Shown piece by piece: positions 17,201 to 30,655 of a DNA stretch of 64,000 nt. A model generated the notes under the pieces. It did not search any database, had not been told where the DNA came from, and worked only from the letters and a program-made list of their open reading frames with translations. The DNA comes from Candidatus Aminicenantaceae bacterium. Its GTDB lineage: Bacteria; Acidobacteriota; Aminicenantia; Aminicenantales; Aminicenantaceae. The stretch spans positions 4,427 to 68,426 of the forward strand of contig JAZFSR010000121.1 of assembly GCA_036446295.1 (NCBI GenBank). Reading direction: 5' to 3'. The translations under genes and the position numbers were made by a program. The first letter of the stretch is position 1; each line of letters opens with the position of its first letter.

Positions 17201-17343
17201 GAATTATTCATAAAAACTGCCTCCACCATCATTTCTCTCCAATGATATCAACTTTATAGCATGATTTTAGTAAGATCTCGAACATTTCTTTGTTTGTTGG
17301 CTAGTTTATACTAAATGTCGGCATTTTTTACCCCAAGGGGGCT
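17201..17343 (-). promoter_or_regulatory. Conserved 143-nt upstream leader (repeat B copy 1) with embedded sigma70-like promoter TTGGGG-17-TAGTAT
   Basis: About 75% identical to 31954-32096, in the same position relative to a different minus-strand gene. Read on the minus strand the putative -35/-10 are at 17331-17336 and 17308-17313. Confidence 0.5.
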
Positions 17344-17443
17344 GAGATGCGCCCCTCCATTGAAAAATTGGCAGGGGTATATTATACTAACAATTCCATT
17401 TTGGAACTTATATGCTTATAAAAAAACAAATAACGGAGTTTTA

Positions 17444-18751
17444 ATGAAAAAGAATGTCATCATCATGGGCGCCGCAGGAAGGGACTTTCATAACTTCAAC
17501 ACCTTCTTGAGAGACAACCAAAACTATCAGGTCGTTGCGTTCACGGCCACACAAATTCCGGACATAGATGGCCGGAAATATCCCGCCGAACTGGCGGGCC
17601 GGTTGTACCCGGAGGGAATCCCTATTTTCTCTGAAGATGACCTGACTAAGCTGATCAAATCCATGGAAGTCACAGAAGTCTTTTTTTCCTACAGTGATAC
17701 ATCCAATGACTATGTCATGCATAAGTCCGCCGATGTTATGGCCGCCGGAGCCAGTTTCACACTCCTCGGCCCCAGAGAGACGATGATAGCCAGCCGTAAG
17801 CCACTGATCTCTGTCTGCGCAGTGCGAACGGGAGTCGGCAAAAGCCAGACCAGCCGTAAAATTGCTCTGATGCTCAAGAACAAAGGCCATCGGGTTGTAG
17901 TCATCCGGCATCCCATGCCCTATGGGGATCTGGTCAAACAAAAAGTCCAGCGCTTTGCCAATTACGACGACATGATCAAACACAAATGCACGATCGAAGA
18001 GATGGAGGAGTACGAACCCCATATCAGCAACGGCATCATCGTCTATGCCGGGGTGGACTACGGCGCCATCCTGGAAGAAGCCGAAAAGGAAGCCGATATC
18101 ATCCTCTGGGACGGCGGAAACAATGACTACCCGTTTTACAGGGCGAATCTGGAAATCGTCCTCATCGACCCCCACCGCCCGGGACACGAACTTCAGTATT
18201 ACCCTGGAGAAGTGAATTTCAAAAGAGCACAGGTCCTCATCATCAACAAGATGGATACGGCCGAGCAAGGCAACATCGACCGCGTTGTCGAAAATATTAA
18301 GAGGTACAATCCCGAAGCCACAATCATCAGGGCCAATTCCCCCATCAGTGTTCCGGACGGCAAAGACATCGAGGGAAAGACCGTCCTGGTCGTTGAAGAC
18401 GGCCCAACTCTGACACACGGAGGCATGGCTTTCGGAGCCGGCATTGTGGCGGCCAAAAAATATGGTGCCGGCCGCATCGTCGATCCACGCCCCTATGCTT
18501 TAGGAAGCATTAAAAAGACATTTGAAAAATATACGCACCTCGACCGCGTCCTCCCGGCCATGGGATATGGACAGGAACAAATCGACGAACTCACCGAAAC
18601 CATCAACCGCACCGAATGTGACCTCGTTATCGGAGCGACCCCTATCGATCTGAGCCGCCTGATCCAAACTAACAAAAGAATTCTCCGCGTCTCTTACGAT
18701 TTGGAAGAAATCGGGTCTCCCAACCTTCAGGAGGTCCTCAAGGATTTCTGA
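17444..18751 (+). CDS. P-loop NTPase resembling cyclic 2,3-diphosphoglycerate synthetase (CPGS) family
   Basis: 436 aa from the MKKNVIIMGAAG Met. Walker A-like CAVRTGVGKSQTS; size and layout are consistent with the CPGS family. The assignment is from memory of the family, not a search. Confidence 0.55.
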   Translation: MKKNVIIMGAAGRDFHNFNTFLRDNQNYQVVAFTATQIPDIDGRKYPAELAGRLYPEGIPIFSEDDLTKLIKSMEVTEVFFSYSDTSNDYVMHKSADVMAAGASFTLLGPRETMIASRKPLISVCAVRTGVGKSQTSRKIALMLKNKGHRVVVIRHPMPYGDLVKQKVQRFANYDDMIKHKCTIEEMEEYEPHISNGIIVYAGVDYGAILEEAEKEADIILWDGGNNDYPFYRANLEIVLIDPHRPGHELQYYPGEVNFKRAQVLIINKMDTAEQGNIDRVVENIKRYNPEATIIRANSPISVPDGKDIEGKTVLVVEDGPTLTHGGMAFGAGIVAAKKYGAGRIVDPRPYALGSIKKTFEKYTHLDRVLPAMGYGQEQIDELTETINRTECDLVIGATPIDLSRLIQTNKRILRVSYDLEEIGSPNLQEVLKDF

Positions 18752-20632: not shown

Positions 20633-22831
20633 ATGGACCAAGAAAACGAAATTACGCAAATTAACAACGACGATCTTTCCTTTTTAGAAAAGGAACTGGC
20701 CAAAACCAAAACCCCTGTCGTACAGGAAGAACTGGTCACTAAAACCGCCTTCAAAAAGACTGCAATCCAGCGGTGCCTGGAAGCCAAAAAATACAATTCC
20801 GATTGTTTGTATGAAATCGGCGACCTCGTGTTTAAGGAATATGATGAACCGCTGACCATCAGCTCTAAAGGTACCGAACACTTTAAAGGTTCCGTGGTGC
20901 TTAAGGTAGTCAACAAATTTTCTCTTCCTGATTTCAACTGTGAAATGCTGGAAGTGGATTACTTGGGTGGGGGAGTATTCCGGAAGCATATCGACTACAT
21001 GAAAAAAACTCGTACGCAGGTTCTCCTTCCGAGCAACTGCGACGGAAAGGCTCTCTCTCCAAAAATATTACAGAAAGACGAAGACCCTCGGTTAAACGAA
21101 CTTCCCATGACAGATAAAGACCTGAGGAAACTGGAGAAAAATCTCAAATCGGCACTTTTAAAATCCGATAAATTTTTTAACTGGAATGAATTCTGGCAGC
21201 TGGAAGCAAACCGGATCGCTATTACAGACAAAGAGATTAAAAAAATTGAAAAAAAATTTATGGAGACCCCCCTCTCCACGGCCACGACAGATTTGATCCT
21301 TCAACTCTTTGATATCGATAAAAAAAATGAGCTGTTTGCCATTCACGCCCTCAGTCTCAATTTTGTTCTGGAAAAGAACTACAAGAAAAAATTCGTCTAT
21401 ATTTCTCCGGAAGATTGGGGGAAATGGTTCTCCAAGGAGACTCTCGATTCGTTTCTGGCCAATCTTCCCATCACAAAATCCAAGGCCAAGGTTCCACGTC
21501 TGGATGAAACCAGTCATGAATCCCTCTCTAATGCCCCGGAAATGCCATTAAAAGTCTATCTAACATGGAGAGAAGTTCTCTCCGGCTGCATTAAAATCCC
21601 CAAGAGTATGAACCGGCATTTTTCAAAGTCCAGAGAATACATCTTTACGGATTCAGACAGCGGCAAAGACTATGTCGTCTACTACTACCCCTCATCCAAT
21701 ATCTTTTATGGGCTGCAGGAATTCTACGAAAAAAACAATGTTCCCCAGGGAGCCAGTCTCACTATCGAGAAAAAGGACCTCACTTCATGCCATTTCAGCT
21801 TGAAAAAGTCAAAAAAGAAGCTCGAAGTACCCCACCTCACATATGACCCTAAAAAGGATGAGATCATGGACACCGGGGAAGAGGCATTCACTTTTTCCCT
21901 TCCTAACAAGATCATCTTTTTGGAACGTGAAACTCTGACCACTCTCTTGACTCTTTACAGACAGCGGAAAAATGTTGACCTTAAAGACCTGCTCATCCTC
22001 ATCTTTAAAAATTTTGGATTGGAAGGGCAGGCCCTCACTATCCACTATCAACGCGCTTTTCATCTTGTCGATTTTATCAAACGCACCACTATCGAAGATG
22101 TGGAGAATGTTCTTCTCAACTCTCCTGAATTTACACAATCGGAAAAGAGCAAGGGTCTTTTTCTCTATCCGCTTGAACTAGAAGAAGTATCCCCGGATGA
22201 GACAGGGGTGGAAGAACATATAGAAAAGCCCGTTGACGAAAAGATCGCCGCCATGGTCGAAGAAATAGAGGAAGAGATTCTCCCTGAAATCGGGACTGTC
22301 GGCGAGGTAGCCATCCCAGAAGGATCCAAGATTGTCGAAGTCATCGAGCCCGAAAAACCGGCTCCCGTCAAAGTTAAACCTCCCCCAGTAAAGCCTGACC
22401 GACCTCTACGCCGTAAAAAAGCTGTCGACATTGTAACCCCAGAAGAAAAAGTCCCCTTAGAGCCTTCTAAAAAAGAAAAACCGGCCAAAAAGAAAAAGGC
22501 CCGATTGAAGGAAGAGCAGGAAAGAGTTCCACGACGCAGACGCGGAGGGAAACGCTTCATCGAAGAACGGATCGAACTGGAAGAATCGGAACACGAAGCC
22601 CTGATCGCCCGCAAAGCAGAAGAATCGGAACAGGAAAGCATCATCCTGCCTGAGAAACCCAAAAAAGACGAAGCAAAAGAAATGGGCAAGAAAGAAGAAC
22701 TTGCGGAGTATGTCTCCGAAACCCCGGCGTCGTCTCTCTTTGCCGACAAACTCAAGTCAGCCCTGGGGAAGACACCGCCCAAAGCTTCTGACAAAGGGAA
22801 AAAATCTAAAAAAAGAAGAAAACAAACCTGA
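20633..22831 (+). CDS. Hypothetical protein, 732 aa, with extremely K/E/R-rich C-terminal ~200 aa
   Basis: Uninterrupted ORF starting 2 nt after the argF stop. No family recognised. The tail reads …KPAKKKKARLKEEQERVPRRRRGGKRF…KGKKSKKRRKQT. Visibly A-rich codon usage. Confidence 0.7.
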   Translation: MDQENEITQINNDDLSFLEKELAKTKTPVVQEELVTKTAFKKTAIQRCLEAKKYNSDCLYEIGDLVFKEYDEPLTISSKGTEHFKGSVVLKVVNKFSLPDFNCEMLEVDYLGGGVFRKHIDYMKKTRTQVLLPSNCDGKALSPKILQKDEDPRLNELPMTDKDLRKLEKNLKSALLKSDKFFNWNEFWQLEANRIAITDKEIKKIEKKFMETPLSTATTDLILQLFDIDKKNELFAIHALSLNFVLEKNYKKKFVYISPEDWGKWFSKETLDSFLANLPITKSKAKVPRLDETSHESLSNAPEMPLKVYLTWREVLSGCIKIPKSMNRHFSKSREYIFTDSDSGKDYVVYYYPSSNIFYGLQEFYEKNNVPQGASLTIEKKDLTSCHFSLKKSKKKLEVPHLTYDPKKDEIMDTGEEAFTFSLPNKIIFLERETLTTLLTLYRQRKNVDLKDLLILIFKNFGLEGQALTIHYQRAFHLVDFIKRTTIEDVENVLLNSPEFTQSEKSKGLFLYPLELEEVSPDETGVEEHIEKPVDEKIAAMVEEIEEEILPEIGTVGEVAIPEGSKIVEVIEPEKPAPVKVKPPPVKPDRPLRRKKAVDIVTPEEKVPLEPSKKEKPAKKKKARLKEEQERVPRRRRGGKRFIEERIELEESEHEALIARKAEESEQESIILPEKPKKDEAKEMGKKEELAEYVSETPASSLFADKLKSALGKTPPKASDKGKKSKKRRKQT

Positions 22832-22853
22832 GACCGAAAAATCGGTCGCCCGA

Positions 22854-24008
22854 ATGAGCACTTGGCAAAAAACAGCTGATGTCGCCATCCTCGGAGGAGG
22901 CATCCTCGGCGTAAGCGCCGCATTTTTTCTTTCGCGCCATAAGCCGTTCCGGATCGTGCTGCTTGAAAAAGATGGCCTCGCCCAGGCCACGACCGGATTG
23001 AGCGTCGGAGGCATTCGGCAGCAGTTTTCTCATCCCTCAAATATTCTCCTTTCCCAAAACACTCTCGCTTTTTTTGATTTTTTCCAGAAGGAATACGGCA
23101 TCCCTCTAAGCTTCCACAAGGTAGGTTATCTCTTTCTCGCCCAAAAGGAGGACACTTGGAAAGATTTTCTCTCGAGTGTCCGGACCCAGAAGCGATACAA
23201 TGTCCCCGTAGAGGCACTTCTTCCTGGCGAAATCCAGCGGCGGTGGCCCTATCTGAATGTTGCGGATCTCAAAGGAGGCACATTCTGCCCGGAGGACGGC
23301 TATGCAGATCCCTACGAAGTAACGATGGCCATGGCAAATATCGCACGGCAGAAGGGGGTAGACATCTTTGAACAGACGGAAGTGACGGGAGTTCTTGTGG
23401 ACCGGGGAAAGGTGAGCGGCGTGCAAACAAGCCGGGGTGATCTTTCCGTTCCCATTGTAATCAATGCAGCCGGGCCGTGGAGCGGAAACATAGGGCGGAT
23501 GGCCGGGTTGAACTATCCCGTTTTTCCCTTCAGGCGCCAGGTGTTTGTAACCAAGGCGTTTCAAGAGTTAGCTAAACCCATCCCCTTTATTTTGGATTTT
23601 GATTCCCTCTTTTATTTTCGGGAGGAGGGACCGGCTATCCTCATGGGAAAAAGTGATCCGGAGGAACCTTCAAGCTTCAACATCCATGTGGACAGGGGGT
23701 TCATGGAAACCGTCATAGAGGCGGCATGCCATAGAGTCCCCGTTCTCGGCAGCGCGGAAATTGCGAAGGGCTGGGGAGGGCTGTACACCATTACGCCAGA
23801 TGGAAATCCGATCATCGGAGCCGACCCCAACGTCAAAGGATTCTACAATGCCATCGGATTTTCAGGGCATGGATTCCAGCACGGCCCTGCCGTCGGACAG
23901 ATTCTCTCCGATCTCATAGTACACGGCTCTACAGCCTTGGATATGACCCCATTCTTTTCAGAACGATTCACTCAAGGACCACTTCTTGGGGAAAAACGTG
24001 TTGTGTAA
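22854..24008 (+). CDS. FAD-dependent oxidoreductase (DAO/sarcosine-oxidase-beta-like)
   Basis: N-terminal dinucleotide fold ADVAILGGGILGVSAAFFL and C-terminal DAO-family region. The internal Met at 22854 was chosen; the ORF-track start would overlap the upstream gene. Confidence 0.8.
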   Translation: MSTWQKTADVAILGGGILGVSAAFFLSRHKPFRIVLLEKDGLAQATTGLSVGGIRQQFSHPSNILLSQNTLAFFDFFQKEYGIPLSFHKVGYLFLAQKEDTWKDFLSSVRTQKRYNVPVEALLPGEIQRRWPYLNVADLKGGTFCPEDGYADPYEVTMAMANIARQKGVDIFEQTEVTGVLVDRGKVSGVQTSRGDLSVPIVINAAGPWSGNIGRMAGLNYPVFPFRRQVFVTKAFQELAKPIPFILDFDSLFYFREEGPAILMGKSDPEEPSSFNIHVDRGFMETVIEAACHRVPVLGSAEIAKGWGGLYTITPDGNPIIGADPNVKGFYNAIGFSGHGFQHGPAVGQILSDLIVHGSTALDMTPFFSERFTQGPLLGEKRVV

Positions 24009-24022
24009 GGAGGACCATACTT

Positions 24023-25015
24023 GTGAAGATAAAAATCCTTAATCAAGAAAACGTCATGGAGGCCATCACTATCAAGGAGGCCATATCGGCTGTGAAGGAT
24101 GCCTTTATCCAGCTTTCCGCACAGGAAGCGGTTGTGCCGATGCGAAGCCAGATCCAGGTAGCCAAAGACAAAGGGATCTCCCTCTTTATGCCGGCTTATC
24201 TGGAAAAAAGCCATTCTCTCGGGGCTAAAATCGTCTCTGTGTTTCCAGACAATACCTCTAAGAACCTGCCCACCATTTTTGCTGTGGTTATCGTTCTGGA
24301 TGCCGATACCGGCCGTCCCCGGGCCATTCTGGACGGCACTTTTTTGACGGCACTGCGCACGGGGGCGGCATCTGGGGTAGCGACAGATTTGCTTGCGAAA
24401 AAAGACGCTTCGACAGCCGCTGTCTTTGGCGCAGGAATACAAGGCCGGACTCAAATGGAGGCCGTATGTACAGTCAGATCCATAGACAAAATTTGGATCT
24501 ATGATCCCCGTGCCTCTGCGGCGGACGCATATGTCCGAGATTTAAAAGAAAAGGGCCCCCCTTTTCCACAGGACATATCCGTTGCCTCCTCCCCAGAACA
24601 GGCGGCTGGCCAAGCCGATATCATCTGTACGGCCACAACCTCTTCCGTACCTGTTTTTAACGATAACCATATCAAACCGGGCGTCCACATCAACGGCGTC
24701 GGCTCTTACACTCCGGAAATGCAGGAGATTCCTTCAGCAACCGTAGTGAGGGCTAAAGTGTTTGTAGATTCTGTATCCTCCAGCTGGGAAGAGGCCGGAG
24801 ATCTGATTATTCCCCTTCAAAAGGGGCTCATCGACAAAGCCCATGTCCGCGGAGAGATCGGAGAACTGGCGTTGGGACAAATTCGGGGAAGGGACAAGGA
24901 GGATGACATCACGTTCTTTAAATCCGTAGGCGTGGCCGTGCAGGATATTTCTGTTGCACAAGTCATTCTCCAAACCGCCGAAAAGCTCGGATTGGGACTG
25001 GATGTCGACTTATAA
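24023..25015 (+). CDS. Ornithine cyclodeaminase/mu-crystallin family protein (candidate Pyr2C reductase or OCD)
   Basis: 330 aa with a Rossmann region GAGIQGRTQ and the OCD/mu-crystallin pattern throughout. Confidence 0.85.
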   Translation: MKIKILNQENVMEAITIKEAISAVKDAFIQLSAQEAVVPMRSQIQVAKDKGISLFMPAYLEKSHSLGAKIVSVFPDNTSKNLPTIFAVVIVLDADTGRPRAILDGTFLTALRTGAASGVATDLLAKKDASTAAVFGAGIQGRTQMEAVCTVRSIDKIWIYDPRASAADAYVRDLKEKGPPFPQDISVASSPEQAAGQADIICTATTSSVPVFNDNHIKPGVHINGVGSYTPEMQEIPSATVVRAKVFVDSVSSSWEEAGDLIIPLQKGLIDKAHVRGEIGELALGQIRGRDKEDDITFFKSVGVAVQDISVAQVILQTAEKLGLGLDVDL

Positions 25016-25029
25016 AAAGGAGGCACAGT

Positions 25030-26058
25030 ATGACTCAAACTTGGGAACCCCCTTCAGACTGGCTGCGGATTACAGCTATAGATGCACACACTGCCGGTGA
25101 ACCACTGCGGATCATCACCGGCGGATTTCCCCCCATCCCCGGGACAACGATTCTGGCCAAACGGCGGTACGTCCGGGAACACTTTGACCATCTGCGGAAA
25201 GCCCTCATGTGGGAACCACGAGGGCATGCCGATATGTACGGCTGTCTCCTCCTTGAACCCACAACTGAAGACGGAACCCTGAGCGTACTTTTTCTCCACA
25301 ATCTGGGCTACAGTTCCATGTGCGGTCACGGTATCATCGGCCTGTCCACCGTGGTTATGGAGACCGGTCTTTTCCATGTGGACAAAACTCAACCCAAGCT
25401 CCTTATCGACTCGCCCGCGGGGAGGATTACGGCGCGGGTTCATTGGGACAAAAACCGCATCCGGAGTACGACTTTCCAGAATGTCCCCTCATTTGTCCAT
25501 TCTCTCGATCAAACAATCACGGTCCCGGGTATTGGGGATGTCCGCTATGACATCGCATATGGAGGAGCTTATTATGCATTTGTAAAGGCGGAAGATTTTG
25601 GATTCAACCTTGTCCCTGATGAGTTTTCCACCCTTGTCGAAACCGGAAGACGCATCAAAAAGGCCGTTAAAAATCAAGTGGACATCCGGCATCCTTTTGA
25701 AGAAGATCTAGGCTTCCTCTACGGGACAATATTTGTCGGTCCCCCTCACGACAAGGCTCATCACAGCCGGAATGTGTGTGTTTTTGCCGATGGTGAAGTC
25801 GACCGGAGCCCGACGGGAACCGGAGTCAGTGCACGGGCCGCCCTTCATTTTGCCCGGAACGACATCACAGAGGGTGAGCCTTTTGTTATCGAAAGCCTTC
25901 TGGGAACATGTTTTACAGGACGTGTGGTCAACACCACGTCTTTTGGCAGCTATCCTGCCATTATCCCTGAAGTAACGGGGAGCGCTTTCATCGTGGGGCG
26001 CAGCGAATGGCTCATCGATCCCAATGACCCCCTCCGCCACGGTTTTTTCCTCCGCTAG
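25030..26058 (+). CDS. Proline racemase family protein, Cys/Thr type (predicted trans-3-hydroxy-L-proline dehydratase-like)
   Basis: 342 aa. First catalytic motif SMCGHG retains Cys. The second motif reads DRSPTGTG, so the second catalytic Cys is replaced by Thr. Confidence 0.85.
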   Translation: MTQTWEPPSDWLRITAIDAHTAGEPLRIITGGFPPIPGTTILAKRRYVREHFDHLRKALMWEPRGHADMYGCLLLEPTTEDGTLSVLFLHNLGYSSMCGHGIIGLSTVVMETGLFHVDKTQPKLLIDSPAGRITARVHWDKNRIRSTTFQNVPSFVHSLDQTITVPGIGDVRYDIAYGGAYYAFVKAEDFGFNLVPDEFSTLVETGRRIKKAVKNQVDIRHPFEEDLGFLYGTIFVGPPHDKAHHSRNVCVFADGEVDRSPTGTGVSARAALHFARNDITEGEPFVIESLLGTCFTGRVVNTTSFGSYPAIIPEVTGSAFIVGRSEWLIDPNDPLRHGFFLR

Positions 26059-27137
26059 AGGATCTCGCGTGTGGGACCTCTGCGCCGGGTGACTTTCATC
26101 TGGTCGAGAAGCTCGAGGAGAGGAATGGCGTACTTCCGGGAAAGGCCGGTCATCTCTTTGAATTGGCCAACAGTCAGCTCTTTTCCTTCTAGATTCCGGA
26201 TTTTGGCCACCAGCTCCTCCAGCCACTGAGAATGAAGGATAAATCCGTCTTCCCCCTGGACAATCTTTCTCCTTTCGGCCAGAAGAGAGAGAAGGTTTTG
26301 CAGCCGATGGGCGGAAAGATTGAAGCGTTTCTGGAAGTCTTCCATAGGGACAGAATGAAGCTTCCCCTCAAGACACATCTCTTCCAGCCTGTCAACGAGG
26401 CCTTCCTCCTCTGACGTCAGAGCCAGTTCAAAATCCATCACCGACAACCGTTTTTCGACCTCTTTAATTTGTTTCTCACGAATAAGATGTTTTAACGCGA
26501 GAAACCAGATTCGATCGGGGAGATCAAACTTCTGCTTCACTTCATTATTCAATACGCCCGGCTCATCCGGATGGGTCTCATGATAGCGCCGTATGAACTG
26601 GGTAATTTTCTCTTTGAGGAACTCAAAACTTGCATGAGAAAGCAAAAAAAGCGGGGAAAACGAGAGGATCCGGATCTGTCCTTCAGCTTCCAGCTTCTGA
26701 CAGAGAGGAAGCAGCGTTTTCCTTGTGATAGGAGCAAACTCCAGGATCTCTTTTTCCCTCAAACCCATAATTCCCTTATCCCGGGCGAGAACGGCTAACA
26801 TTCCGATCTTATCACCCCTGAGCTGGGGGAGAAGATTCGCCCTCTTTTTCGCGTCCTTCCCTATCAGTTTTTGATCGGCGGGATAGAGGACTTTTCCTGA
26901 ACCCAACACCTTCTCCGATCCCGGACTCAGGACATCAAAGGAATAGCTCCATTTAACAGTCACCGGTTTTGAGAGGGATACGGAAATGAATGAATCTTTC
27001 AAATCGTGGATACCGGTCTCATAGAAAGAAAATGAGCCCGGCACTTTTTCTTTTTTCAGCACAAATGTGGCATCGTGTGCATGGGCCTTCTTGGGCAAAA
27101 CAATATCGACAACCGCATCAAAAATAGAAGTTTTCAT
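26055..27137 (-). CDS. SelB C-terminal (winged-helix SECIS-binding) domain protein lacking the GTPase domain
   Basis: 360 aa. The C-terminus …GQFKEMTGLSRKYAIPLLELLDQMKVTRRRGPTREIL matches the terminal winged helix of SelB. Only 30 nt separate it from rnr upstream, so there is no room for EF-Tu-like domains I/II. Confidence 0.7.
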   Translation of the reverse strand: MKTSIFDAVVDIVLPKKAHAHDATFVLKKEKVPGSFSFYETGIHDLKDSFISVSLSKPVTVKWSYSFDVLSPGSEKVLGSGKVLYPADQKLIGKDAKKRANLLPQLRGDKIGMLAVLARDKGIMGLREKEILEFAPITRKTLLPLCQKLEAEGQIRILSFSPLFLLSHASFEFLKEKITQFIRRYHETHPDEPGVLNNEVKQKFDLPDRIWFLALKHLIREKQIKEVEKRLSVMDFELALTSEEEGLVDRLEEMCLEGKLHSVPMEDFQKRFNLSAHRLQNLLSLLAERRKIVQGEDGFILHSQWLEELVAKIRNLEGKELTVGQFKEMTGLSRKYAIPLLELLDQMKVTRRRGPTREIL

Positions 27138-27166
27138 CTCTTATCCTCACCTGGCTTAGAAAGGCA

Positions 27167-29227
27167 TTATAACACACTTTCCGGCAAAGCCAGAGTGAGC
27201 CTTCGTAGAACAGGATTCACAGCCGCCAGCACAACGCTGACACTATCACCCAGTTTGAAAGTTTTTCCTGTTCTTCGGTTGACCATTTGATTTTCCTTCT
27301 TACGAAAGACAAACCCGCCGCCCAGATCATCGAAAGGGACAAGGCCGGACACAAAATAGTCCTCCAATTCGACAAACAGTCCCGCCCGAGATATACGAAT
27401 CACAATCCCCTCCAATTCATCTCCCAGCTTGCCCTTCAGGAAACGGAGGATCCTCCACGTCACCAGATCCTTTTCCGCCTCCTCCGCATTCCTCTCTAAC
27501 TCAGAACAATGCCGTGCCGCAGAATTCAGAGCCGGAAGACGGAGGGTTTTTTTCTTAAGAGCACTTTTGAGGAGCCGGTGAACGAGCAGGTCTGGATAAC
27601 GCCTGATCGGAGAAGTAAAGTGCGTGTAGATTGTCTTGGCCAAACCATAGTGCCCTTTATTCTCCGTGGAATAGACAGCACGGGTCAGACTTTTTAAGAC
27701 CTGGATGCTGAGAAATTTTCCTCCTACCCTTCCGGCGGTTTGCTCCAGCACCCGCTGTAGATCTTTCGACCGGATTCTTTTATCCTGGGGAAGAAATATC
27801 TGAAAAAACTCCAAAATCTCCCGCAGCTTGGCCAGGGCATCCTTTGAAGGCGGGGGATGAACCCGAAAGATCAGCTCGATTTCCTTTTCAGCAAGGAACC
27901 GGGCCACGGCTTCGTTGGCCAAAATCATGATTTCTTCGATAACCCGGTGAGCCTCGTTGCGGGGAAAAAATGAAACGGATTGAAGGATTCCCTCTTTATA
28001 GACAAGTTCAGGTTCCAAGGCAAGATCAAAATCCAGGCTTCCTTCCCGCACACGGTTTTTCCGGAAACGTTCAGCCAGCTCCTGCAAAAGAAGAAGATCG
28101 GGAACAAGGGCCTCATATTTTTTCCTCTCCTCTTTGTCCCCCGAAAATATTTTAAAAACCGAGTCATAGGTCAATCTCTCCTCGGTGTGGATCACAGACT
28201 GACAAAATTCCGAGCTAACCACTTGTCCGTCCGCATCAACCGTGAGGAGAACGGACATTGTCAGCTTGTCTTCTCTGGGACGCAGACTGCAGATCTCATT
28301 GGCAATTTTTTCCGGAAACATGGGAAGGGTTAGGTCGGGAAAATAGACACTTGTTCCCCGGTCAAACGCCTCTTCATCCAATGCGGAGCCGGGATGGACA
28401 TAAAAAGAGACGTCCGCAATGTGAACGCCCAGCAGCATTTGTCCTCGGGGAAGCTTTCGGACACTTACGGCATCATCAAAGTCCTGGGCCTTTTCTCCGT
28501 CTATAGTCACGGTCCGCCAGCTTCGATAATCGACCCTGTCACGAATCTCTTTTTCCGGAATTTCAGCACTAATCCCTTCACCTTCTTCTGCGGCCAAGTC
28601 TGGAAAAGAGTCCTTTAAATTATGGTTCCGTATCACTACCTGAGTGTCCACCCCCAAGTCATCGGGAAAACCGAGAACTTCTTTCAGCATGTTCGAGTCC
28701 CTCTCGACAACAACGATTGTCCCCTTGAGAAGAGAAAAACCTGCGGTCCCCTTGAGTGGAAAATCCTCGGAAAGCGGAGAGTCCAGATTTTGGAAAAAGG
28801 GCTGTCCATAGCGTTCCCTATAGATGCCGTGGACAGATGTTCTTTTCTTTTCAATGATACGAAGGACTCTTCCTTCGGGTTTTCCTTTCCGCCCAAACTC
28901 CACAACGGACACCTCAACAACATCCCCCAAAATGGCCCCTCCGATTTGCCGGGCATGAATATAGATGTCATCCAAGCCCTCCTCATCAGGTCGGATAAAT
29001 CCGAATCCACGCTGACTCGTGACAAATGTTCCCCGAATAATATTTGATCTCTGACGGAAAAAATATCTTTTTTTAAGAAGAAGGATCACTCCCTGATCCT
29101 GAAGTTTTTGGAGATCCTTTGTCAGGATCTTTTTTTCTTTGGGAGAGAGATAAAGTTTACTCGCTAATTTCACATAGCTCATTCCCTGTTTGTTTTTTTT
29201 CAAGAGGGAAATAATCCGAGAGATCAT
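27167..29227 (-). CDS. rnr: Ribonuclease R
   Basis: 686 aa with an N-terminal HTH/cold-shock region, an RNB catalytic domain and a C-terminal S1 domain. Confidence 0.92.
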   Translation of the reverse strand: MISRIISLLKKNKQGMSYVKLASKLYLSPKEKKILTKDLQKLQDQGVILLLKKRYFFRQRSNIIRGTFVTSQRGFGFIRPDEEGLDDIYIHARQIGGAILGDVVEVSVVEFGRKGKPEGRVLRIIEKKRTSVHGIYRERYGQPFFQNLDSPLSEDFPLKGTAGFSLLKGTIVVVERDSNMLKEVLGFPDDLGVDTQVVIRNHNLKDSFPDLAAEEGEGISAEIPEKEIRDRVDYRSWRTVTIDGEKAQDFDDAVSVRKLPRGQMLLGVHIADVSFYVHPGSALDEEAFDRGTSVYFPDLTLPMFPEKIANEICSLRPREDKLTMSVLLTVDADGQVVSSEFCQSVIHTEERLTYDSVFKIFSGDKEERKKYEALVPDLLLLQELAERFRKNRVREGSLDFDLALEPELVYKEGILQSVSFFPRNEAHRVIEEIMILANEAVARFLAEKEIELIFRVHPPPSKDALAKLREILEFFQIFLPQDKRIRSKDLQRVLEQTAGRVGGKFLSIQVLKSLTRAVYSTENKGHYGLAKTIYTHFTSPIRRYPDLLVHRLLKSALKKKTLRLPALNSAARHCSELERNAEEAEKDLVTWRILRFLKGKLGDELEGIVIRISRAGLFVELEDYFVSGLVPFDDLGGGFVFRKKENQMVNRRTGKTFKLGDSVSVVLAAVNPVLRRLTLALPESVL

Positions 29228-29235
29228 TGGCCCGC

Positions 29236-29868
29236 TCAGTACAAAAAGGGAACCACATGGGGGATTTTGTACTTGCCCCGCATGAGCTTAATCAAGATAA
29301 CATGAAATATTCTCTGAAACTCTTCACGCCCAGTATCCGGAAAAGCGTCCACTGCTTCCTTTTTGGCCTCCTCTTTATCTTCAGAAGAAGAGAGGGAAAC
29401 CAGAAGTCCTTCGATGTCTTCCTCGGCCCTCTCGAGATCTTCTTCCGAGCAGTCCGGTAAAATCTCCTTCACTCGTCCATATGGCGCCTCAAGCCACTTG
29501 ACCTGCAGGGGAACTTCTTCTAAAAATTGGGCCACTGCCGCACAAATTTCCTTCTTTTTATCTTTCTTTACAGCCGGAGTACTCTTCCGGCCAACCGTTC
29601 TTTCCTTATACAGAGAAAAGGCTTCTTTCACATTGCGCTCGCAGTAAGACAGCGACCTGATCCTTCTCCTCGGGCCTGCCCCTCCATGCTTTTGACTCCG
29701 GTTCGAAAAAGACGCATTGATGCCTTCGAGCACAATGCGGAGGGGAATCCCGGCGGCTTCCCATTTTTCTACAAGAGACAGTTCGTTGGAGGACAGGAAA
29801 AATGGCGCCCCCCTGAGATCAAAATATTTTCGTGCTATCGTTTGGAAGTAAAAGCTCTGGTCGTCCAT
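29236..29868 (-). CDS. Hypothetical protein (acidic, K/E-rich C-terminus)
   Basis: ORF of 236 aa in the track. The internal Met at 29868 avoids a 59-nt overlap with coaX. No family recognised. Confidence 0.45.
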   Translation of the reverse strand: MDDQSFYFQTIARKYFDLRGAPFFLSSNELSLVEKWEAAGIPLRIVLEGINASFSNRSQKHGGAGPRRRIRSLSYCERNVKEAFSLYKERTVGRKSTPAVKKDKKKEICAAVAQFLEEVPLQVKWLEAPYGRVKEILPDCSEEDLERAEEDIEGLLVSLSSSEDKEEAKKEAVDAFPDTGREEFQRIFHVILIKLMRGKYKIPHVVPFLY

Positions 29869-29887
29869 TATTTTCCCGGAAAATCCC

Positions 29888-30655
29888 TCAAGAAGTGTTT
29901 CTTTCGTGAATGATGCGGAGTCCCTCCAGAACGAGATGGCGTTCATAGATATCGATCTGATCTATTTTTTCAAATATAAGGGAGGCAAACCCTCCCGTCG
30001 CAATAACTTTGGCCTGACTCCCCAGCTCATTCTTAAATTTGTTTATAATGTTGGTCACCAAGCCGATGTAACCAAAATAAAGACCACTTTGCATGCTGGA
30101 TACCGTCGTCCGTCCAATGGCTTTTTTTGGAATTTTGATTTCAATCCGAGGTAGTTTGGCTGTTTTCATAGACAGGGCTTCGGCGGCAATCTGAATTCCC
30201 GGAGCAATGGCACCTCCAAGGTATTCTCCTTCCGCGGAGATGGCATCAAATGTCGTGGCTGTCCCAAAATCAACTACAATCGCAGGCCCTCCGTATTTTG
30301 AGAACGCCGCCACGGAAGAGACAATTCTGTCTGCCCCGACTTCAAGCGGGTTTTCATACAGAATGGGCATTCCTGTTTTTAATCCCGGTCCCACAACTAA
30401 GGGTTTGATGTTGAATTGATTCTGGCTCAGCTCCTGGAAAACAGGAGTCAGGGGCGGGACAACGCTGGAGATGATCACATCGCGGATCTCTTCGACAGCC
30501 ACTCCAGACAAGGCAAACAGCTGAAGCAGAGTCACCGCATACTCATCACATGTTTTATCTCTCCCAGATTGGATGTTCCAGTGTTGAGTAAGGGTTTCTC
30601 CCTGGAAAACGCCAATGACAATATTTGTGTTCCCAAGATCTAGGGCTAGAAGCAT
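29888..30655 (-). CDS. coaX: Type III pantothenate kinase
   Basis: 255 aa, MLLALDLGNTNIVIGVF… and a GTATTFD… acetate/sugar-kinase fold typical of CoaX. Confidence 0.9.
   Translation of the reverse strand: MLLALDLGNTNIVIGVFQGETLTQHWNIQSGRDKTCDEYAVTLLQLFALSGVAVEEIRDVIISSVVPPLTPVFQELSQNQFNIKPLVVGPGLKTGMPILYENPLEVGADRIVSSVAAFSKYGGPAIVVDFGTATTFDAISAEGEYLGGAIAPGIQIAAEALSMKTAKLPRIEIKIPKKAIGRTTVSSMQSGLYFGYIGLVTNIINKFKNELGSQAKVIATGGFASLIFEKIDQIDIYERHLVLEGLRIIHERNTS

Follow-up and report, generated by a model that had tools for sequence, protein, structure and literature searches.

SelBC, a GTPase-less descendant of the elongation factor SelB encoded downstream of RNase R in Aminicenantes

Introduction

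[quoted passage not shown] Domain II of SelB is a beta-barrel that forms the aminoacyl pocket. Of the remaining domains, domain III (D3) contacts the T and extra arms of the selenocysteine tRNA (tRNA-Sec), winged-helix domains (WHD) 1 and 2 have been modelled on helix 16 of the 16S rRNA, and WHD3 and WHD4 bind the SECIS hairpin (PMC4605307). Here we describe a gene, selBC, whose product is derived from SelB and lacks the GTPase domain. The gene lies in a 64,000-nucleotide (nt) stretch of DNA (64 kb, referred to below as the window) from a Candidatus Aminicenantaceae bacterium (assembly GCA_036446295.1, contig JAZFSR010000121.1, positions 4,427 to 68,426), directly downstream of rnr, the gene for RNase R.

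Two further groups of described systems are relevant to this locus. Archaeal SelB-like factors (aSelBL, “EF-Pyl”) are relatives of SelB in organisms or contexts without selenocysteine (PMC3037878, PMC4329189). In the rnr-smpB(-ssrA) operons of Bacillus and Streptococcus, rnr is accompanied by the gene for SmpB, which brings RNase R to stalled ribosomes, and in E. coli a tail of RNase R rich in lysine and arginine (K/R-rich) is needed for ribosome association (PMC12320835). Our search of the literature returned no paper on a GTPase-less SelB, on SelB together with RNase R, or on selenocysteine in Aminicenantes, and the SelBC family, although automatically annotated, is undescribed in the literature searched. 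Based on domain architecture, comparative genomics, and patterns of conservation, we propose that SelBC is a functional descendant of SelB that probably acts as a stand-alone RNA-hairpin-binding protein, the reading that we favor.

Results

SelBC keeps the C-terminal domains of SelB and lacks its GTPase half

The gene selBC occupies positions 26055-27137 on the minus strand and is a complete coding sequence in the list of open reading frames (ORFs), with an ATG start and 360 amino acids (aa) plus stop. Its identity is based on matches in Pfam, NCBIfam and the Protein Data Bank (PDB) and on 856 homologs. An earlier note, made from the sequence alone, had proposed that the protein carries the four winged helices of SelB, including the terminal mRNA-binding helix, behind a barrel of the EF-Tu domain-III type, and that it has neither a GTPase domain nor domain II; each of these proposals is borne out. 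Profile similarity to the SelB winged helices is significant, with SelB-wing_3 matching aa 319-357 (E = 1.9e-17; 63 bits against a cutoff of 23.2) and SelB-wing_2 matching aa 182-230 (E = 6.6e-8; 33 bits against a cutoff of 22.3). Using phmmer against the PDB, we find that aa 128-358 align with 1LVA, the C-terminal fragment of M. thermoacetica SelB (E = 1.9e-20), and that 1WSU, which contains WHD3-4 and SECIS RNA, is also matched (E = 1.9e-10). The complete ORF combines PF09106 and PF09107 without PF00009, the stand-alone SelB-wing architecture. There is no Pfam match to GTP_EFTU or to domain II (GTP_EFTU_D2) in SelBC, and the alignment to TIGR00475, the selB equivalog model, begins only at model position 308 (aa 55-356 against positions 308-576 of 581) and scores 40.9 bits, below the equivalog cutoff of 242.25.

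The predicted structure agrees with these matches. An AlphaFold2 model built from an alignment of 31 family members (pLDDT 86.8, pTM 0.74) shows a six-stranded barrel at aa 1-87 (strands aa 2-87), two helices (aa 94-107 and aa 110-124), and, C-terminal to these, four winged helices. In a Foldseek search with the model, ribosome-bound E. coli SelB ranks first (5lzb_z; E = 5.7e-15 over 365 aligned columns), ahead of 1LVA and then A. aeolicus SelB (4ZU9), and the barrel alone matches EF-Tu domain 3 over ~95 columns (E ~1e-4). Taking the domain limits from A. aeolicus SelB (PMC4605307), we find that SelBC consists of a D3-type barrel, the N-C spacer and WHD1-4. The domain-III-like EF-Tu/SelB beta-barrel (aa 1-92; 26862-27137, minus strand, as for all domains that follow) is diverged and has lost the residues conserved in SelB. 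It is followed by a basic two-helix segment with an isoelectric point (pI) of 10.6 (aa 93-125; 26763-26861), which is equivalent to the N-C spacer of SelB, and by WHD1 and WHD2 (aa 126-237; 26427-26762), delimited by the 1LVA alignment from aa 128, the SelB-wing_2 match, and the model. WHD3 (aa 238-302; 26232-26426) is covered by the 1LVA and 1WSU alignments and the model, and WHD4 (aa 303-360; 26058-26231), which in SelB is the SECIS-hairpin-binding domain, by SelB-wing_3 and 1WSU. WHD4 contains the motif FK.(M)TGLSRKYAIPLLELLDQ.GVTRR.G..R. The overall pI of SelBC is 9.1.

The start of the gene is equally well defined. The upstream gene rnr (27167-29227, minus strand; 686 aa; TIGR02063, 652 bits) ends with a TAA at 27167, and the 29-nt spacer between this stop and the selBC ATG contains a Shine-Dalgarno-like sequence, AGGTGAGGA (27144-27152, minus strand), placed 6 nt 5' of the ATG. 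There is no space for a hidden N-terminus between rnr and the ATG, and a frameshift or contig error that conceals the missing domains is ruled out, since 31 independent loci have this short architecture. As the earlier note had maintained, the missing part is not a matter of mis-calling, and the true start is close behind rnr. At its 3' end, selBC shares 4 nt with a convergent gene of the proline-racemase family, at the stop of the latter.

WHD4 is the most conserved part of SelBC

The mean pairwise identity within the family differs by region, from 25% in D3, 35% in the spacer, 37% in WHD1-2 and 40% in WHD3 to 63% in WHD4, which is the most conserved part of the protein. For a residue-level comparison, we aligned the SelBC family with 51 full-length SelBs, which were retrieved by similarity to the SelBC family and are for this reason biased towards look-alikes. 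All 16 WHD4 positions conserved in SelB are kept (F326, K327, G331, R334, K335, A337, I338, P339, L340, L341, E342, D345, T350, R352, G354, and R357), and the consensus of this stretch changes only once, at position 343, from Y to L. In D3, where SelB conserves H..GT.E, PG, GDRF.iR, and SP..TIGGG, nearly all of the conserved positions are replaced, with H..GT.E, PG, the invariant R, and SP..TIGGG among the losses. The barrel is wholly absent in four species genomes (L023, L029, L030, and L031; proteins of 254-270 aa), and in L028 a basic, proline-rich, low-complexity N-terminus stands in its place. Because the barrel is dispensable and conservation peaks in WHD4, the indispensable core of the protein is the spacer helix together with WHD1-4, above all WHD4. 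This pattern of conservation suggests that RNA-hairpin binding was kept and that the tRNA and GTPase functions were lost. Given that SelBC has no GTPase domain, no domain II, and a D3 without the SelB residues, it cannot bind GTP, carry Sec-tRNA to the ribosome, or act as an elongation factor.

As a separate observation, the barrel-less proteins P0152, P0162, P0164, and that of L028 have N-terminal extensions of low complexity that are rich in lysine, arginine, and proline. These extensions recall the tails with which RNase R and ribosomal proteins bind nucleic acids.

The same data bear on whether selBC is functional at all. That the gene is a decaying selB pseudogene whose frame stays open by chance would fit its descent from selB by N-terminal loss (see below) and the fast evolution of the barrel, which changes more quickly than any other region. 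We find this scarcely credible, and it is already contradicted by the evidence: the reading frame is intact in all 27 aligned selBC loci, the family spans 22 species-level genomes and reaches down to 33% identity, and WHD4 has the high mean identity given above across the family. The codon-based ratio of nonsynonymous to synonymous substitution rates (dN/dS) is 0.23 for L012/L014, 0.16 for L015/L016, 0.16 for L019/L020, and 0.09 for the window and L004. A good Shine-Dalgarno sequence and translational coupling are also maintained. By these sequence-based measures, the selBC family is under purifying selection and functional. Class-wide conservation, purifying selection, and a near-invariant WHD4 therefore make repurposing a better reading than decay.

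The position of the conserved residues also speaks to a winged-helix DNA-binding regulator, for instance a transcription factor of its own operon, that would have arisen once selenocysteine was no longer used. DNA binding is typical of winged helices, SelBC is basic, and weak, sub-threshold Pfam matches to Rep3_N, MarR_2, HTH_69, and RPA_C are found in SelBC or its relatives. However, every match to a DNA-binding family falls below the curated cutoff, and conservation is centered on the SelB-specific WHD4 motif common to SECIS-binding SelBs rather than on a new surface. Nor does the locus offer a conserved intergenic space for an operator, with only 29 nt upstream of selBC and a 3' end that overlaps the neighboring gene. 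Taken together, we consider a role as DNA-binding regulator quite improbable.

Distribution of the short form

Among the 856 homologs of SelBC in protein databases, the best 120 are all ~360 aa long and 45-94% identical, and close homologs carry the NCBI name “SelB C-terminal domain-containing protein” and come from Aminicenantes or Acidobacteriota. In a HMMER scan over 1.8 billion cluster representatives (50%-identity clusters), we find ~40 representatives of ~360 aa with identity down to 33%. Full-length SelBs (620-655 aa) enter this list only from E ~1e-26, with query aa 48-360 corresponding to SelB residues 318-632. Members of the family are 33-94% identical and are also present in many metagenome contigs.

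To place these proteins in their genomes we scanned the representative genomes of the Genome Taxonomy Database (GTDB) and kept 80 loci, 22 with the short form and 58 with an ordinary full-length selB. The short form is present in 22 of the 22 Aminicenantes species genomes among the 80 loci, one of which is a complete chromosome (CP070750.1), and all 22 short-form loci kept are from Aminicenantes. The 58 full-length loci are from other Acidobacteriota and a few other phyla. Using tblastn with SelB domains I and II (D1-D2), we find no match in any of the 31 short-form loci, whereas in 55 of the 58 full-length loci the D1-D2 match is directly upstream of and contiguous with the C-terminal match; the other three loci end at a contig edge.

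Several database entries of this family deserve mention in their own right. Nine assemblies titled “uncultured Eubacteriales bacterium” carry the Aminicenantes-type arrangement coaX-unknown-rnr-selBC (L010, L012, L014, L016, L018, L019, L021, L029, and L031), most of them also with birA, and their titles look taxonomically mislabelled. In JGI/IMG, GTPase-less proteins of 360 aa (P0011, P0017, P0023, and others) are named “selenocysteine-specific elongation factor”. Naming of this kind would wrongly score Aminicenantes genomes as SelB-positive and could lead automated surveys of the selenocysteine trait to count too many genomes with SelB. P0406, a partial “SelB C-terminal domain-containing protein” of 319 aa, belongs to a bacterial-type SelB cluster (the P0327 cluster) and has a Lokiarchaeia metagenome-assembled genome as its NCBI source; this attribution is probably due to bin contamination. 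Lastly, low-identity matches of ~280-375 aa were considered as further stand-alone families and rejected, as they are mostly fragments of ordinary SelB that start inside a D3 motif.

Origin by N-terminal erosion

The nearest full-length SelB by score is P0177, a protein of 627 aa with intact GHIDHGKT, DVPGH, and TKKD motifs. Its gene is located between pgi, which ends 5 nt upstream, and tatA. The short forms most distant from SelBC of the window (P0171, P0179, and P0169) are found in the order rnr-pgi-selBC with flanks that are otherwise unrelated. Of other remote homologs, the gene for P0258 lies behind pgi without rnr, that for P0178 has neither gene beside it, and that for P0226 lies behind glyQS; an AIRS-family gene near P0226, considered as a possible selD, encodes PurM. 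Within 10-kb flanks, pgi is found at 0 of the 58 ordinary selB loci, which are mostly from Acidobacteriota.

Intermediates in length are also found. The N-termini of P0179 (516 aa) and P0191 (469 aa) align, in a profile-profile comparison, with SelB D3 and the second half of D2 (hhalign, 82% probability, E = 1e-5), and it is only in these two proteins that a remnant of D2 survives. In a neighbor-joining tree of the C-terminal 300 aa, the SelBC family nests within bacterial SelB, and the stand-alone forms minus P0226 form one clade in 128 of 200 bootstraps (64%), with the full-length sister group of this clade not resolved.

Stepwise erosion of the N-terminus in place is the simplest history to which these data point. 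Judging from synteny and from the intermediates, selB would have stood downstream of pgi in an ancestor of the Aminicenantes lineage and lost its N-terminus there in steps, from the full length of 627 aa, through forms without domain I (516 or 469 aa), to forms of ~360 aa without domains I and II, such as the window gene. In some species erosion would have continued to the loss of domains I-III (254-270 aa). In crown Aminicenantes, pgi would then have been lost from between rnr and selBC.

The earlier note had offered two alternatives, a remnant of selB in a lineage that lost selenocysteine use, or a repurposed protein that binds SECIS or another RNA hairpin. The evidence joins them: SelBC is a remnant by descent and very probably repurposed in use. 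Descent from selB is supported by the pgi-linked position and the truncation intermediates; the idea of a decaying gene does not survive the purifying selection and class-wide conservation described above, and repurposing as an RNA-hairpin binder, with an essentially invariant WHD4 motif, is the better reading of the two. Our analysis also goes beyond these alternatives in that the barrel no longer has the residues conserved in SelB and some species do without it, the truncation would have occurred in place, and the adjacency to rnr is in part inherited synteny.

Selenocysteine context

We next consider whether the remaining selenocysteine machinery is present. As the earlier note had stated, no selA, selD, or tRNA-Sec is found in the window: ARAGORN and Rfam gave only tRNA-Val, and Pfam searches of 24 of the large ORFs gave neither selA nor selD. 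No tRNA-Sec is found in 27 related loci. A search of the window for TGA-interrupted genes (an in-frame TGA with coding sequence on both sides) returned only frame-sharing neighbor genes or off-frame noise. Neither the 58 full-length loci kept nor the 120 closest relatives of P0177 include a full-length SelB labelled as Aminicenantes. These negatives, which cover the window and related loci and are not a genome-wide test, are compatible with loss of selenocysteine use.

These results also bear on a split or auxiliary SelB. In such a system, SelBC would serve as the SECIS arm in trans to a separate GTPase half, or it would compete with a canonical SelB for SECIS elements and so tune selenocysteine insertion. 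The retention of all SelB-conserved WHD4 positions would be expected of such a protein, its SelB-like shape, including the packing of D3, spacer, and WHD1, is predicted with confidence, and full-length selB is common in other Acidobacteriota. However, the components that it would need are missing from the window and related loci and from the sets of full-length SelBs just described, even if these fall short of whole genomes. The loss of the SelB residues from D3, and of D3 itself in four species, is hard to square with coupling to a GTPase and a tRNA, and the location of selBC at the ancestral selB position argues for a replacement rather than a duplicate. Therefore, we regard a split or auxiliary SelB as improbable.

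The link between selBC and rnr

In all 31 short-form loci (31/31, all at 34% identity or above), the short form recurs with rnr upstream, and in all 27 crown-group loci rnr is immediately upstream. By tblastn, rnr is absent near all 58 full-length selB loci. In L006/L007 and L008/L009, rnr is still upstream even though other flanking genes differ. ATGA-type overlaps of 4 nt between the stop of rnr and the start of selBC are seen in at least 10 loci. These overlaps of stop and start indicate co-transcription and translational coupling, and the two genes are probably co-expressed. Counts of promoters and terminators around the rnr-selBC operon are at chance level.

The RNase R of the window has the Pfam domains RNB, OB_RNB, CSD2, and S1 and stops 8 aa past the S1 domain, without a K/R-rich tail. 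Likewise, the 120 crown RNase R proteins listed are 642-698 aa long, end just past S1, and are tail-less. We considered whether SelBC compensates for a tail-less RNase R, and this idea is weakened by L094 (positions 1-483), in which the RNase R C-terminus, “...DPVLQRMEFALPEE”, is followed by a tail of ~145 aa rich in lysine, arginine, and glycine, with a stop that overlaps the selBC start by 4 nt; this locus has both a tailed RNase R and an overlapping selBC.

Crown Aminicenantes share a conserved block, birA-coaX-unknown-rnr-selBC. In the window, the gene between coaX and rnr (29236-29946, minus strand) encodes a protein of 236 aa with no Pfam or NCBIfam match, and tblastn finds this protein at the same position in crown Aminicenantes loci with 30-55% identity. 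We rejected the protein upstream of rnr as a member of a conserved module, since L006 has at this position a 252-aa protein without homology to the 236-aa protein of the window.

In our favored reading of SelBC as a stand-alone RNA-hairpin-binding protein, it would bind a specific RNA hairpin through WHD4, and, as in SelB, WHD1-2 and the basic spacer may have kept the ability to dock on the shoulder of the 30S subunit. SelBC and RNase R would come from one transcript, with translation of the two coupled in many species. Because of this shared transcript, the most plausible field of action would be post-transcriptional, with SelBC acting on structured RNA, or on mRNA bound to ribosomes, to mark, protect, or present it in conjunction with RNase R. 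A more specific proposal, attractive but tentative and in our view rather unlikely, is that the hairpin-binding, 30S-shoulder-docking arm of SelB was exapted as a dedicated partner of RNase R. Such a partner would recognize a hairpin or sit at the mRNA entrance of the ribosome, and it would recruit or restrain the tail-less RNase R of Aminicenantes.

A number of results weigh against these proposals. On the side of RNA binding, the retention of RNA contacts is read from conservation and not from coordinates, and the SelBs used for comparison are biased in the way described above. We searched both strands of the window for SECIS-like hairpins (a GGU[CU] loop closed by a stem of 6 bp or more) and compared the counts with those in shuffled sequences. 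The hairpins are not enriched (6 found, 4.6 expected), none is in the rnr operon, and no candidate RNA target emerged from this search. On the side of RNase R, a fusion of RNase R and SelBC is absent among the best 120 matches to a concatenated query, all of which are 642-698 aa. The whole birA-coaX-unknown-rnr-selBC region is syntenic in crown Aminicenantes, where adjacency is thus not independent evidence. The adjacency is also partly inherited: pgi sits between rnr and selBC in the deep branches, the closest full-length selB (that of P0177) lies behind pgi without rnr, as does the gene for P0258, and P0178 has neither. Given this synteny, and a position that goes back to the ancestral selB, adjacency to rnr is weak evidence of a functional partnership.

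Neighboring genes in the window

Three plus-strand genes at 22701-26058 converge on selBC and encode an FAD-dependent oxidase (DAO), an ornithine cyclodeaminase/mu-crystallin, and the proline-racemase-family protein. This cluster looks like a catabolic set for hydroxyproline or proline and is patchy, being present in some Aminicenantes loci and absent elsewhere (for example, L008 and L010). A 732-aa protein encoded at 20633-22831 (plus strand) has no Pfam match, and its C-terminal half is long and rich in lysine, glutamate, and proline. Unannotated proteins of 699-729 aa occur at the same position, beside genes for ornithine carbamoyltransferase (OTCase) and an amino-acid kinase, in L001, L003, L004, and L008. 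Upstream of the amino-acid kinase and OTCase genes, the window has a 478-aa ORF without a Pfam match (17315-18751, plus strand), and an unannotated gene of 434 aa is found at the equivalent position in L001, L003, and L093.

Discussion

A whole bacterial class keeps only the RNA-reading arm of SelB, under purifying selection, with the GTPase lost in recognizable steps. The SelBC family is in this respect a natural experiment on SelB domain IV acting alone, and it provides a documented path by which a translation factor was reduced and exapted. If the partnership with RNase R were true, SelBC would be a new kind of specificity factor for an enzyme whose targeting is poorly understood outside E. 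coli. It would then represent a new targeting route for 3'-5' RNA decay or for ribosome-associated mRNA surveillance, derived from dismantled selenocysteine machinery.

Bacterial SelB (TIGR00475; 4ZU9, 5LZB, 1LVA, 1WSU, and 2UWM) is the closest known relative. The order and the predicted fold of domain III, the N-C spacer, and WHD1-4 are the same in SelBC, both proteins have the WHD4 motif SRKYAIPLLE.LD...TRR.G..R, and the nearest full-length SelB is encoded at the same pgi-linked genomic position as the remote SelBC forms. SelBC differs in that it lacks domains I and II, its domain III has lost the SelB residues and is dispensable in some species, and the linkage of its gene is with rnr (and pgi), not with selA.

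For what a natural SelBC can do, the best analogy is offered by the domain-IV fragments of SelB, such as residues 377-634 and 512-634 of the M. thermoacetica protein, which were crystallized as 1LVA and 1WSU. These fragments are laboratory truncations of a working SelB, whereas SelBC is natural and long conserved and has an extra, diverged barrel and a different genomic partner. SmpB is a small RNA- and ribosome-binding protein that is encoded right after rnr, as SelBC is, and co-expressed with it, as SelBC probably is; the two have no kinship in sequence or fold, and the analogy is positional only. Lastly, the archaeal SelB-like factors are a further example of the re-use of SelB. What they retain is the GTPase domains, without the winged-helix arm of bacterial SelB, and thus the opposite half to that of SelBC.

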